Positions 2,304-4,510 of a stretch of 5,904 nucleotides of DNA are shown piece after piece; within the stretch, counting starts at the first letter, position 1; each line of letters opens with the position of its first letter. Where the stretch lies: the IMG/VR virus record IMGVR_UViG_2645728048_000011; one strand, given 5' to 3'. Source of the DNA: a virus (Duplodnaviria; Heunggongvirae; Uroviricota; Caudoviricetes). The notes under the pieces are model-generated. The model saw nothing but the letters and a program-made list of their open reading frames with translations, was not told the origin of the DNA and did not search any database. The position numbers were made by a program, and so were the translations under genes.

Positions 2304-2327
2304 GTGTAATGGAAATAAAAAGGCCAC
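2304..2327 (-). terminator. Intrinsic terminator (minus strand) between methyltransferase stop and holin start
   Basis: Perfect 6-bp GC-rich stem ggccac/gtggcc (2312-2317 / 2322-2327) with 4-nt loop. On the minus strand it is followed directly by UUUUUAUUU (plus 2304-2311 is an A-run). Lies 17 nt after the methyltransferase stop and 27 nt before the holin ATG. Confidence 0.6.
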
Positions 2328-2343
2328 CTACGTGGCCACCAGA

Positions 2344-3396
2344 TTATTTCCCCACCAGCTCGTTTATCTCTTTCACTGTCTGGTTAAACCGCTCTGACTC
2401 AAGCTCAACACCTAAGGCCCGACGCCCCAGCGCCATTGCTGCTTTTATTGTGGAACCGGATCCCATAAAAAAATCAGCAACCAGATCACCAGGTCGACTA
2501 CTGGCATTGATTATTTGCCGGAGCATATCCGCAGGTTTCTCACACGGATGTTTACCCGGGTAGAACTGAACGGGTTTATGCATCCAGACATCGGTATAAG
2601 GCACGGAGACTGATACGGAGAAATAGCGCCGGAGAGATTTAAACTCATCCAGCAATTCAGAATATTTGCGATTCAGTGAATCATAAGATGCCACCAGCTG
2701 GTGGTGTGGTTGTTCCAGTTGTTGTTCCTGAAACTTCTCTGCCGCTATACGGGAAAACAGTGCCTGTAACTTCCGATAGTCAGCCTCATTCGGCAACTGC
2801 CACTGACTGGCACCAAACCAGTGGGAAACCATATTTTTCTTACCTGTGGCTTCGGCAATTTGTTTTGCCGTTATACCCAGTTCGGCACGAGCATCCCTGA
2901 AATACGATATCAGCGGTGCCATTATGTGCTGTTTGAGTTCCCTTTCTTTTGCCGCATAGCCGTCACTTTTGCCGCGATATGGCCCCTGGTAATGTTCAGC
3001 AAACAGAACGCGCTCTGTGGCAGGAAAATATGCGCGCAGACTTTCTTTATTACACCCATTCCAACGTCCGGACGGCTTCGCCCAGATGATATGGTTAAGC
3101 ACGTTGAAACGTTCACGCATCATGATCTCAATATCAGATGCCAGGCGATGCCCACAGAACAGGTAAAGGCTTCCGGCAGGTTTTAACACCCGCCAGAACT
3201 GGGCCAGACAGTGATCCAGCCACTTAAGGTAATCTTCGTCCCCTTTCCACTGATTGTCCCAGCCGTTGGGTTTCACCTTGAAGTACGGCGGATCGGTAAC
3301 AATCAGGTCAATGGAATCATCAGGCAGGGACTGAATAAAATGCAGGCAATCAGCGTTGATTAAATCAACACTGTTTATTTTTACAGTATTTTTCAT
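2344..3396 (-). CDS. DNA methyltransferase, beta-class amino-MTase (N6-adenine or N4-cytosine; N6_N4_Mtase/YhdJ-like architecture), orphan
   Basis: 350-aa ORF with N-terminal catalytic motif IV (DLIVTDPPY) and C-terminal AdoMet motif I (DLVADFFMGSGST), the circularly permuted beta-class order. HPCEKPADMLRQII block resembles YhdJ-type HPTQKP. A central insertion of roughly 130 aa between the motifs is a candidate target-recognition region. No restriction endonuclease gene is adjacent. No SD upstream of the ATG. Confidence 0.9.
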   Translation of the reverse strand: MKNTVKINSVDLINADCLHFIQSLPDDSIDLIVTDPPYFKVKPNGWDNQWKGDEDYLKWLDHCLAQFWRVLKPAGSLYLFCGHRLASDIEIMMRERFNVLNHIIWAKPSGRWNGCNKESLRAYFPATERVLFAEHYQGPYRGKSDGYAAKERELKQHIMAPLISYFRDARAELGITAKQIAEATGKKNMVSHWFGASQWQLPNEADYRKLQALFSRIAAEKFQEQQLEQPHHQLVASYDSLNRKYSELLDEFKSLRRYFSVSVSVPYTDVWMHKPVQFYPGKHPCEKPADMLRQIINASSRPGDLVADFFMGSGSTIKAAMALGRRALGVELESERFNQTVKEINELVGK

Positions 3397-3546
3397 GGAT
3401 CAGTAAGCGTAACTCTGGTAGGCTCACTCTGCTTTTGCGCTAAAGCAGTGGGCCGTGGTTCGCTTGTGACCAGTAAGCATGAGCGAATGGCTGGCAGGTG
3501 CTACCAACACCCACCAGCCGCCCATTTTCACAGCAGGAAACCGCCA

Positions 3547-3750
3547 TTACTGGCAGCGTCTGAATTTATTCCCGTACCCGCCGTTATCCTTCGCCAGACC
3601 CGCCAGAACTAACTGAGTCAGTATTAACTGGCACCGGGCTTCGCTTACTCCGGTAGTTCTCGTCATCATGCGTGGCGTTACCCACTTGTCAGCAGGTAAG
3701 AAATGAAGGACTGCTGCGGCGGTTTCTGTCATATCTTGCTGTTTTAGCAT
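3547..3750 (-). CDS. Small hypothetical protein with winged-helix-like pattern (about 67 aa); possible DNA-binding regulator
   Basis: ORF 3547..3774 in the track. The ATG at 3750 is the preferred start because it has an SD (GAAGGGA, 7-nt spacer), whereas the ATG at 3774 has none. Product MLKQQDMTETAAAVLHFLPADKWVTPRMMTRTTGVSEARCQLILTQLVLAGLAKDNGGYGNKFRRCQ shows a helix-turn-helix-wing pattern loosely reminiscent of PapI/FaeA-type regulators. Family assignment is from pattern recall only. Confidence 0.45.
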   Translation of the reverse strand: MLKQQDMTETAAAVLHFLPADKWVTPRMMTRTTGVSEARCQLILTQLVLAGLAKDNGGYGNKFRRCQ

Positions 3751-3871
3751 GTATTTTTCCCTTCTGGTTAACATGACATACCAATAACTCTTGTCTAAAA
3801 AGCCAGCAAGATAAAAAGTCAGTATTCACGACCACCAGCGTGTTTACTGTACTGCACCAGGTTTACAGGTA

Positions 3872-3896
3872 CAAAAAAACCGCTCAGCGGCGGGTT
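3872..3896 (-). terminator. Weak terminator-like hairpin with U7 tail on minus strand (A7 / short GC stem / TTT on plus strand), possibly bidirectional
   Basis: Plus aaaaaaaccgctcagcggcgggttt: short stem ccgc/gcgg (3-nt loop), extendable with a bulge to aaacc/ggttt. On the minus strand it is followed by UUUUUUU. The stem is short, so confidence is low. Confidence 0.25.
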
Positions 3897-3958
3897 TAAG
3901 TTGTGTGGCGAAGTAACCACTCTTAACAGCATATTTGATTTTTTACGATTGTAAACGG

Positions 3959-3987
3959 TTGATTATTCATCTCCAATAAAAATAATT
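3959..3987 (+). promoter_or_regulatory. Candidate sigma70 promoter for the plus-strand lipoprotein gene
   Basis: -35 TTGATT (3959-3964), 16-17 bp spacer, -10 AATAAT/ATAATT (3981-3987), in an AT-rich divergent intergenic region about 35 nt upstream of the lipoprotein ATG. Weak SD (GGATAAG) precedes the ATG. Confidence 0.3.
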
Positions 3988-4020
3988 GTGTGGGTATGCC
4001 CTTAACAATGGATAAGAAAC

Positions 4021-4467
4021 ATGAATAAAATGACTGTATTATTACTTAGCGCAACTATCATTTCAGGTTGTACTTCTTCCGTACCATTGATAAAGAAAAC
4101 TCAATCAGGAAAACCTGAGGGGGTTTATCAAAATACGACAAAAGATAAAGTCAAAGATGCCCTTGTGAATTACTGCAATAGTAGAGGGTTGACAATTTAC
4201 AACGCGGATAACAGCAGTGTTATATGTGGTAAAGAACTGGAAGGCGGGTCTGCTGTTTTTGGACAAATGTTAATCGGCAATGCCTATTCAACAACCCCGG
4301 TATCAAAAGTCAAATTTACTATCGCTCAAGTTAATAACGATACAAAAGTGTGGGCCGATATGTGGATGGAAACTCAAATGGCAATGGGGCAAGTACAACA
4401 AATGGCTATAACAGACAACGCAAGCAAAAACACTATCCAACAACGTCTTGATGAATTAAAACCTTAA
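4021..4467 (+). CDS. Lipoprotein of unknown function (moron; signal peptide + lipobox IISGC), opposite strand to the phage late operon
   Basis: 148-aa ORF, MNKMTVLLLSATIISGCTSS...: basic N-terminus, hydrophobic core and lipobox Cys17 with Thr at +2 (no Asp, so not an inner-membrane retention signal). Mature part is Asn/Gln/Thr/Lys-rich. The region is visibly AT-richer than the flanking phage genes. A hairpin follows 20 nt after the stop. Confidence 0.7.
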   Translation: MNKMTVLLLSATIISGCTSSVPLIKKTQSGKPEGVYQNTTKDKVKDALVNYCNSRGLTIYNADNSSVICGKELEGGSAVFGQMLIGNAYSTTPVSKVKFTIAQVNNDTKVWADMWMETQMAMGQVQQMAITDNASKNTIQQRLDELKP

Positions 4468-4478
4468 GTAAATTAATT

Positions 4479-4510
4479 AAATAAAATGGGGAGAATAAAT
4501 CGACTCCCCA
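4479..4510 (-). terminator. Intrinsic terminator on minus strand just downstream of Q (candidate tR'-type late terminator); also the 3' hairpin of the convergent lipoprotein gene
   Basis: 7-bp stem tggggag/ctcccca (4487-4493 / 4504-4510) with 10-nt loop. On the minus strand it is followed by UUUUAUUUAAUU. On the plus strand there is no T-run after the hairpin. Confidence 0.55.

Follow-up and report, generated by a model that had tools for sequence, protein, structure and literature searches.

Two independent modules between Q and the holin gene of a lambdoid prophage: a lipoprotein moron and a methyltransferase gene preceded by a conserved structured RNA

The interval between the antiterminator gene Q and the holin gene S of lambdoid phages accommodates accessory genes (morons), for instance bor, stx and, in PA-2 and DLP12, the porin genes lc/nmpC. 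A stretch of 5,904 nucleotides (nt) of the Caudoviricetes record IMGVR_UViG_2645728048_000011, analyzed as a whole and hereafter called the window, carries in this interval a lipoprotein gene, a small winged-helix open reading frame (ORF) and the gene of a DNA methyltransferase (methylase) headed by a leader of 150 nt. The question raised by this locus is whether the three genes form a single accessory island, as proposed in a preliminary description made from the sequence, or separate units, and when the methylase would be made. The interval is composed of two independent modules, a lipoprotein moron and the conserved start of the late operon. The explanation that accounts best for the locus as a whole, to which a probability of about 0.8 is assigned, adds that the methylase of the second module is provided with an RNA leader and would be expressed late only.

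All the features named in the preliminary description were found in the window, each in its place (Table 1). The 2,274 bp between Q and the holin gene are indeed non-lysis DNA at the Q-to-S cargo site, protein searches and predicted folds agreed with the identities given to the lipoprotein, the winged-helix protein and the beta-class orphan methylase, and the terminator after the methylase, the missing Shine-Dalgarno (SD) sequence and the structured leader were likewise recovered. What did not hold is the association of the three genes. The block that runs from the start of the holin gene up to the terminator preceding the small ORF (2278 to ~3896-3928) occurs at 77-99% identity in 39 phage records (megablast), including SfV (orf47/48), cdtI (orf55/56), mEp460, Ayreon, phiP27 (L23/L24) and Stx2c phages; all three genes are present together in two of them (PhiR40_1 and PhiR55_1), and the methylase module is found without the lipoprotein in SfV, Ayreon, cdtI, vB_EcoS-569R4, 1720a-02, phiP27, Stx2a_1447, Hafnia yong2 and Citrobacter phiNP. 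The methylase gene was detected in 1,266 of 5,426 complete E. coli genomes (near-complete in 1,158), the lipoprotein in 185 and the whole interval in 162, and about 14% of the methylase copies are accompanied by the lipoprotein. Since the lipoprotein is absent from most copies of the winged-helix ORF and methylase block, the three genes do not constitute one unit. The view that this combination is not a standard named module was not sustained either: the M.EcoGII family, to which the methylase belongs, has been characterized, and the ORF and methylase pair is annotated in SfV, phiP27 and cdtI under the names given above.

The methylase module extends well beyond E. coli. A scan with one genome per species gave 80 methylase loci at 56-93% identity in Enterobacteriaceae, Erwiniaceae, Morganellaceae and Gilliamella, most of them located between a Q gene (upstream) and lysis genes (downstream). 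Three query types are represented among these Q genes (Q21/933W-like, SfV-like and Hafnia/Citrobacter-like) and, judged from these comparisons, the module is old and independent of the type of Q. Enterobacterial-type methylase copies at 80-83% identity, with typical lambdoid neighbors, also appear in records titled Vagococcus, Geobacteraceae metagenome-assembled genome, Chryseobacterium and Collinsella; these are probably the product of contamination or mis-binning and not true hosts.

The lipoprotein gene is a different kind of element. It resides in a low-GC cassette (GC 0.34-0.39 across 3750-4650 vs ~0.49 in the flanks) and its product begins with MNKMTVLLLSATIISGC, with lipobox ISGC and a cysteine (Cys17) that is invariant in 17 homologues. 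No annotation was found for it in family searches, and the predicted fold resembles only generic small alpha/beta domains (KA1, Flpp3, BamC-N). Its relatives in Jejubacter, Xenorhabdus and Enterobacter sit elsewhere in prophages or mobile elements. The slot from the Q stop to the putative late promoter PR' (3929-4551) is filled differently from phage to phage: by the lipoprotein in the window, by a GIY-YIG gene on the same strand in phiP27, and by two unrelated convergent ORFs in cdtI, vB_EcoS-569R4 and Stx2a_1447; it is empty in 1720a-02. By composition, position and distribution the lipoprotein gene is a moron, and it is probably driven by its own promoter. The promoter-like signals that the preliminary description attributed to it stand as far as a consensus site on the plus strand is concerned, but not above the level of shuffled sequence: the region contains 8 promoter-like matches vs 5.0 +/- 2.3 expected from shuffles, i.e., no excess, and statements on an own promoter thus rest on consensus matches. 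The hairpin downstream of the gene is devoid of a T-run on the plus strand. The candidate lipoprotein promoter (-35 at 3959-3964, plus strand) and the putative PR' (-35 at 3955-3950, minus strand) are placed back to back, 3 bp apart.

Several observations point to a late promoter located beyond the cargo slot. In relatives that carry other cargo, the shared sequence starts exactly after the -10-like TATGCT of the putative PR'. In cdtI and vB_EcoS-569R4 the last base of the convergent cargo is 23 and 12 bp past the Q stop, respectively, which leaves no room for a promoter beside Q in these two phages. The initial transcribed block, GTTAAGAGTGGTTACTTCGCCACACA(A/G)CTTAAAC, shows one A/G difference among five phages whose flanks are ~75% identical; by analogy with the layout of the Q cassette (10.1101/651190), it would be the pause and Q-loading region. 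Both the tR'-like hairpin that follows and the hairpin after the methylase stop have counterparts annotated as terminators in SfV and Ayreon. Across species loci, a hairpin and T-run were found <= ~10 nt past the methylase stop in ~20 of 51 cases, with differing sequences, and any such site within 150 nt in 26 of 51. On the side of Q, early-operon transcripts that run out of this gene are probably ended by the hairpin located between it and the convergent lipoprotein gene. Taken in this arrangement, the small ORF and the methylase would be the first late genes, with three terminators around them that should let through none but Q-modified polymerase, and the lipoprotein, placed between Q and PR', would most likely be left out of the late transcript. 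The preliminary description had late Q-modified transcription reading through all of the cargo; for the methylase, Q-dependent late expression fits the evidence, but with the likely PR' downstream of the lipoprotein gene, the latter is probably not crossed by this transcription. The 35-nt block and terminator (3870-3927, minus strand) should yield a PR'-tR' RNA of ~45 nt.

Such a position is consistent with the properties of the enzyme family. The PF01555 (N6_N4_Mtase) domain spans residues 29-341 of the methylase (E 2.2e-42), and the motifs VTDPPYF (33-39, N-terminal) and FFMGSGS (309-315, C-terminal) follow the beta-class order and align with those of M.EcoGII. Identity to M.EcoGII is 81% over 349 amino acids (aa), full length, with the M.EcoGII sequence taken from Table S1 of PMC11551740. 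Identity to Anc291, a reconstructed ancestor which was tested and methylates DNA and RNA without site preference, is 89%, also full length. Both reference sequences come from a machine-read supplementary PDF, in which a few residues are possibly misread. Among solved structures none was closer to the methylase than generic beta-class enzymes. M.EcoGII methylates adenine in any context, is prophage-borne, unexpressed in normal growth and harmful if expressed (PMC5778455); homologues from O111 E. coli that produce Shiga toxin (STEC) were classed as 'nonspecific', with no methylation signal in lysogens (PMC6602927). From these similarities the window methylase is expected to be non-specific for adenine context. 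It is an orphan enzyme, with Q, the lipoprotein, the winged-helix ORF, holin, lysozyme and Rz as neighbors and no restriction enzyme gene nearby. The proposed terminator-bracketed late position of its gene fits the reported silence and toxicity of M.EcoGI and M.EcoGII. Some E. coli RefSeq copies of the methylase are labeled 'site-specific DNA-methyltransferase', a pipeline label that is probably wrong for a close M.EcoGII relative and for the M.EcoGII family.

The leader separating the small-ORF stop from the methylase ATG measures exactly 150 nt (3397-3546) and has no GGAGG-type SD before the ATG. The fold of the window sequence is more stable than expected from shuffling (z = -3.6), and none of 200 shuffles equaled it. 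RNAalifold on a MAFFT alignment recovered only part of the structure (16 pairs), and the helices were therefore defined by hand on an alignment of 48 sequences and then tested with pair counts. In five measures none of 500 shuffles reached the observed values, and slid controls were far lower. A model-fitted alignment of 51 sequences, which leans towards structure by construction, had 91% of its cells paired, with changes on both sides in 20 of the 33 pairs, and here too the values were reached by none of 500 shuffles. As an example, one P2 pair (94-118 in the 48-sequence alignment) occurs as CG 22, AU 10, UA 7 and UG 4 times, and in Proteus P1 is rebuilt through several double changes. The terminator-like hairpin T0, at the upstream edge of the leader, changes on both sides in all 6 pairs of the 48-sequence alignment and is followed by a U-run in many relatives.

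Table 1. Features of the window, with position, strand and the evidence or remark attached to each.
Feature	Position	Strand	Evidence or remark
Beta-class N6-adenine DNA methyltransferase, M.EcoGII family, 350 aa	2344..3396	-	PF01555
Conserved structured RNA leader, ~135 nt	3397..3537	-	Covariation counts and covariance model
Helix P0	3520-3524/3449-3453	-	UGGGC/GCCCA; three-way junction
Helix P1	3508-3519/3489-3500	-	12 bp; three-way junction
Helix P2	3482-3487/3459-3464	-	UUCGCU/AGCGAA; three-way junction
Helix P3	3442-3448/3429-3435	-	Hairpin after junction
Helix P4	3422-3427/3403-3408	-	Hairpin after P3
UGAUCC	3397-3402	-	Abuts methylase AUG; UGAUC(C/U) in alignment
Hairpin T0, CTGCCA gtaa TGGCGG	3541..3556	-	Terminator-like; small-ORF stop codon in loop
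Winged-helix protein, 67 aa (75 aa from ATG 3774)	3547..3750 (ORF to 3774)	-	phrog_331, E 4e-27
tR'-like intrinsic terminator, GCCGCTGAGCGGT then TTTTTTTG	3870..3891	-	Terminator scan; hairpin 3891-3879
Near-invariant initial transcribed block, GTTAAGAGTGGTTACTTCGCCACACAACTTAAAC	3892..3927	-	Expected position of sigma-dependent pause/Q loading
Putative late promoter PR', TTTACA-16-TATGCT	3928..3955	-	Consensus match and conservation boundary
Candidate lipoprotein promoter, TTGATT-16-AATAAT	3959..3986	+	Consensus scan only
Lipoprotein, 148 aa	4021..4467	+	Convergent to Q; low-GC cassette
Hairpin GGGGAG..CTCCCC and T-run	4490..4509	-	Terminator scan and sequence reading; between convergent Q and lipoprotein genes
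Intrinsic terminator, GGCCACGTAGGTGGCC then TTTTTATTT	2313..2337	-	After methylase stop, before holin gene; sequence at 2337-2322
Antiterminator Q	4552..4932	-	PF06530, E 2e-51; upstream boundary of interval
Phage-21-type holin S	2062..2277	-	PF04971, E 2e-35; downstream boundary, first lysis gene
Lysis genes holin, lysozyme, Rz/Rz1	1101-2277	-	Downstream of Q, same strand
DUF968/HNH protein	4935-5888	-	

A covariance model of the leader finds one copy in the window (162 bits). Leaders of Gilliamella were detected by this model alone (E ~1e-7 to 1e-5); in them P0 flips from C-G to G-C and P1 and P2 differ in sequence through compensatory changes, while the conserved loop nucleotides are kept. 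The leader core was conserved above both flanking genes in seven of seven comparisons, as in a Salmonella example with identities of 91% for the leader, 72-79% for the methylase and 66% for the small ORF. The distance from the small-ORF stop to the methylase ATG is 147-154 nt in Enterobacteriaceae and Erwiniaceae and 138-142 nt in Proteus and Morganella. In IMG/VR, a 21-nt motif of P0/P1 is followed by the methylase ATG 130-132 nt later in 110 of 114 evaluable occurrences, the remaining four being one truncated remnant variant. Neither Rfam 15, including its SAM (S-adenosylmethionine) and SAH (S-adenosylhomocysteine) riboswitches and phage small RNAs, gave a match at E <= 1 anywhere in the window, nor did literature searches provide a relevant paper on the leader or PR' sequences or on an RNA motif tied to prophage methyltransferases. 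On the strength of this covariation, the leader is a conserved and uncatalogued structured RNA, made of a three-way junction and two hairpins. A remnant layout was observed in E. coli NZ_CP148440.1 (3700-4850) and in four IMG/VR loci (L111, L149, L175 and L194), which show Q, the lipoprotein, the winged-helix ORF and half a leader; they keep the leader only through P1, and a gene with a helix-turn-helix (HTH) domain and tRNA genes replace the methylase.

With regard to the function of this RNA, the UGAUC next to the methylase start codon is complementary to GAUCA, a stretch of the 16S rRNA 3' end that immediately precedes the anti-SD on its 5' side. Two motifs in the loop of P2 have complements near the methylase start: G(G/A)UCA in UGAUC, and CAUG in the CAUG/UAUG that surrounds the start codon. 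The Gilliamella loop, GGUCAU, has its complement in AUGACC (start codon and three bases), so that the register is shifted and the complementarity kept. Most likely, the leader would limit or time translation of the toxic methylase by pairing of this loop with the start site. A more specific proposal, that the three-way-junction RNA represents an undescribed cis-regulatory class in which the 16S-like P2 loop masks UGAUC and AUG until released by the winged-helix protein, the methylase or a metabolite, is put forward tentatively and is possible rather than probable.

Slightly less probable, and doubtful at present, is the reading in which the winged-helix protein, the RNA and the methylase work as one regulatory unit, where the small protein, or the methylase acting on RNA, would bind the leader or nearby DNA and set the level or timing of the methylase. 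Most homologues of the small ORF start at ATG 3750. An AlphaFold2 model of the protein (mean pLDDT, the predicted local distance difference test score, of 87) consists of three helices and a beta-hairpin wing (H7-17, H26-33, H37-49, E53-55, E63-65), with Foldseek TM-scores of 0.6-0.8 against Zalpha, MarR, TrmB, IclR and DprA-WH domains; the scores for the Zalpha, MarR, NsrR and IclR domains are 0.7-0.8. No Pfam or NCBIfam match was obtained for it, and only some homologues carry PF17782 or a TrmB-family name. The idea of a unit draws on the winged-helix homologue that precedes the methylase at 56 of the 76 species loci that could be evaluated and in 103 of 107 IMG/VR hits, on helix 3 (RCQLILTQL..AGL), which is invariant among homologues, on the RNA hairpins bound by some winged-helix domains, such as SelB, found among the fold matches, and on the methylation of RNA by M.EcoGII (PMC5778455). 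However, about a quarter of the loci keep the RNA and methylase in the absence of the winged-helix ORF (several Enterobacter, Trabulsiella, Kosakonia; Gilliamella), in Xenorhabdus the ORF and methylase are present but the leader model gives no significant match, the ORF adjoins a different gene in E. coli NZ_CP148440.1, and an operator-like repeat was not found. A role of the winged-helix protein as sensor of N6-methyladenine like the DpnI domain was considered and discarded, as no such match appeared in the top 50 fold hits.

Conservation of the leader for a reason other than RNA structure, namely a leader peptide from the conserved ATG (AAATGGGCGG), a binding site or promoter at the DNA level, or a recombination linker, is improbable. 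The ATG is invariant and opens an ORF of 33 codons in the window, the annotation of vB_EcoS-569R4 has a 35-aa coding sequence there, and lambdoid mosaics do keep conserved junction sequences. This ORF, however, has 7 codons (MGGWWVL) in most sequences and encodes a different peptide of 18 aa in Proteus, and insertions and deletions shift its frame; with length, frame and sequence all variable, the leader peptide was ruled out. The changes in P1 and P2 compensate pairing and are not peptide-conservative, G-U pairs are frequent on the sense strand only, and there is no promoter-like site within 3397-3546.

Still lower stands the initial proposal of a single island whose methylase would also be expressed from its own signals in the lysogen and modify the host epigenetically, which is very unlikely. 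It has in its favor the location of the interval at the classic cargo site, the presence of the block together with the lipoprotein in 162 of the 185 cases in which the latter occurs in E. coli, and weak promoter-like sites on the minus strand. These points are outweighed by the low share of methylase copies with the lipoprotein, by the slot that is empty or holds other cargo in relatives and by the lipoproteins located elsewhere in prophages of other genera. Independent expression of the methylase found no support, given promoter-like matches at chance level and the only convincing upstream promoter meeting a terminator ~35 nt on; neither did epigenetic modification of the host, as M.EcoGI, M.EcoGII and the STEC homologues were reported inactive in lysogens and toxic if expressed (PMC5778455, PMC6602927). 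The least probable alternative, a metabolite riboswitch (e.g., for SAM or SAH) that would tie methylase synthesis to methyl-donor supply, can appeal to a three-way junction with highly conserved unpaired nucleotides, located upstream of a SAM-consuming enzyme and conserved from Enterobacteriaceae to Gilliamella, but is hardly tenable in view of the empty Rfam search over all SAM/SAH classes, the failure to find a clear alternative terminator/anti-terminator pair and the related phages that manage with a shorter leader.

The preferred explanation, a lipoprotein moron next to a late-operon methylase module with an RNA leader, has its own difficulties, which weigh on both the promoter and the RNA. 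The assignment of PR' relies on a consensus match and a conservation boundary at a site ~600 bp from Q; a Q-binding element was looked for upstream of it and only loose AATC repeats were seen; and a weak promoter-like site inside the winged-helix ORF (3692-3665) could allow some Q-independent expression. As for the RNA, the leader is shorter (76-101 nt) in Photorhabdus and Xenorhabdus, both of which retain the winged-helix ORF and methylase, so that the complete RNA must be dispensable for the methylase; the Photorhabdus leader keeps only the P1 core and its flanks. P0 competes with the pairings GGCCCAC/GUGAGCC, which has some support, and AUGGGC/GCUCAU, which appears in the single-sequence fold; with such alternatives an RNA switch is possible. 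The duplex between loop and start site has energies that beat those of shuffled loops in nearly all sequences, yet the effect is modest (z about -1 to -4), the complementarity is absent in Hafnia, and no both-side compensatory changes are seen for it within the main alignment. Covariance hits in Photorhabdus that reached into the methylase coding region were recognized as misalignment by reading the sequence and were set aside.

Considered as a whole, the late operon would be ordered as putative PR', 35-nt block, tR'-like terminator, winged-helix ORF, terminator-like hairpin, structured RNA, methylase, terminator and lysis genes. In the lysogen, PR' transcripts would end at tR' and the methylase would not be made, which is consistent with the published silence of M.EcoGI and M.EcoGII. 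After induction, Q-modified RNA polymerase would pass all three terminators, and the methylase would be produced along with the lysis and structural genes. The enzyme would then modify adenines of the replicating phage DNA with little or no sequence preference, as its 81-89% identity to tested enzymes suggests, and progeny genomes would be shielded from many adenine-sensitive restriction systems of the next host; self-protection of progeny DNA, as the preliminary description proposed, fits the evidence. Meanwhile the structured leader may limit or time translation of the toxic enzyme, with the atypical UGAUC standing in for the SD and the P2 loop pairing with UGAUC and AUG to mask the initiation region.

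As first described the island was ordinary, one more common prophage methylase and one more moron. M.EcoGII is, however, widely used in chromatin-footprinting methods, and in lambdoid prophages throughout Enterobacterales its relatives are the leading cargo genes of the Q-dependent late operon, some of them directly upstream of stx; such a late-operon position would explain the silence of M.EcoGII-type enzymes in lysogens. Gene content and enzyme family were already known, and the fresh lead is the conserved structured RNA. If the leader does control translation, it would illustrate how phages handle an enzyme that is lethal at the wrong time, and could aid the expression of such enzymes.

The surroundings of the interval are those of a lambdoid phage, with the minus-strand order DUF968/HNH protein, Q, interval, holin, lysozyme and Rz/Rz1. 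Q distantly matches the solved Q21 structures 6P18 and 6JNX (E 7e-9), and the family name Q21/Q933W is used after bioRxiv 10.1101/651190. Downstream of Rz, a 120-aa ORF (717-1079, minus strand) carries an ORF11CD3 domain; it matches only the C-terminal part of Rha/antirepressor-like PHROG families and may be a truncated gene.

Among known systems, those closest to the window enzyme are the non-specific adenine methyltransferases M.EcoGII and M.EcoGI, encoded by prophages of E. coli O104:H4 strain C227-11 (Murray et al. 2018, PMC5778455), which resemble it in length, beta-class layout and lack of extra domains. M.EcoGII and the window methylase are both orphan enzymes of lambdoid prophages, although the latter falls in a separate branch of the family, of the SfV/cdtI/mEp460 type. 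Phage 1720a-02, for which a very similar enzyme was noted (PMC5778455), shares the order of winged-helix ORF, 150-nt leader and methylase directly after Q; the upstream ORF, the leader RNA and the late-operon position are undescribed in the M.EcoGII papers cited. The controller (C) proteins and autoregulated methyltransferases of restriction-modification systems offer a parallel, as in both cases a small protein with a DNA-binding fold is encoded just upstream of a methyltransferase whose level needs to be limited. Unlike those units, the window has no restriction gene, its small protein is a winged helix and not an Xre-type HTH, the conserved element that does not code for protein follows the small gene and has the behavior of an RNA, and the small ORF is dispensable in several lineages.

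The lipoprotein resembles the lc/nmpC, bor and stx morons in being a single gene of deviant GC that is present or absent among near-identical phages, and Q-to-S morons in general in its candidate promoter and terminator signals and its cell-envelope product; in contrast to them, its family has no known function. With the lambdoid Q cassette (Q, PR', pause, tR', late genes; PMC7547250, 10.1101/651190) the window shares a Q of the Q21/933W family and a promoter-like site with an intrinsic terminator ~35 nt later, followed by the late genes. It differs in that the putative PR', a predicted promoter, is apparently ~0.6 kb from Q with convergent cargo between them. The predicted PR'-tR' RNA is comparable to lambda 6S and StxS in position and unlike them in sequence, and matches no Rfam family. 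In phiP27 and Stx2a_1447 the tRNAs and the stx genes come after the same pair of winged-helix ORF and methylase.

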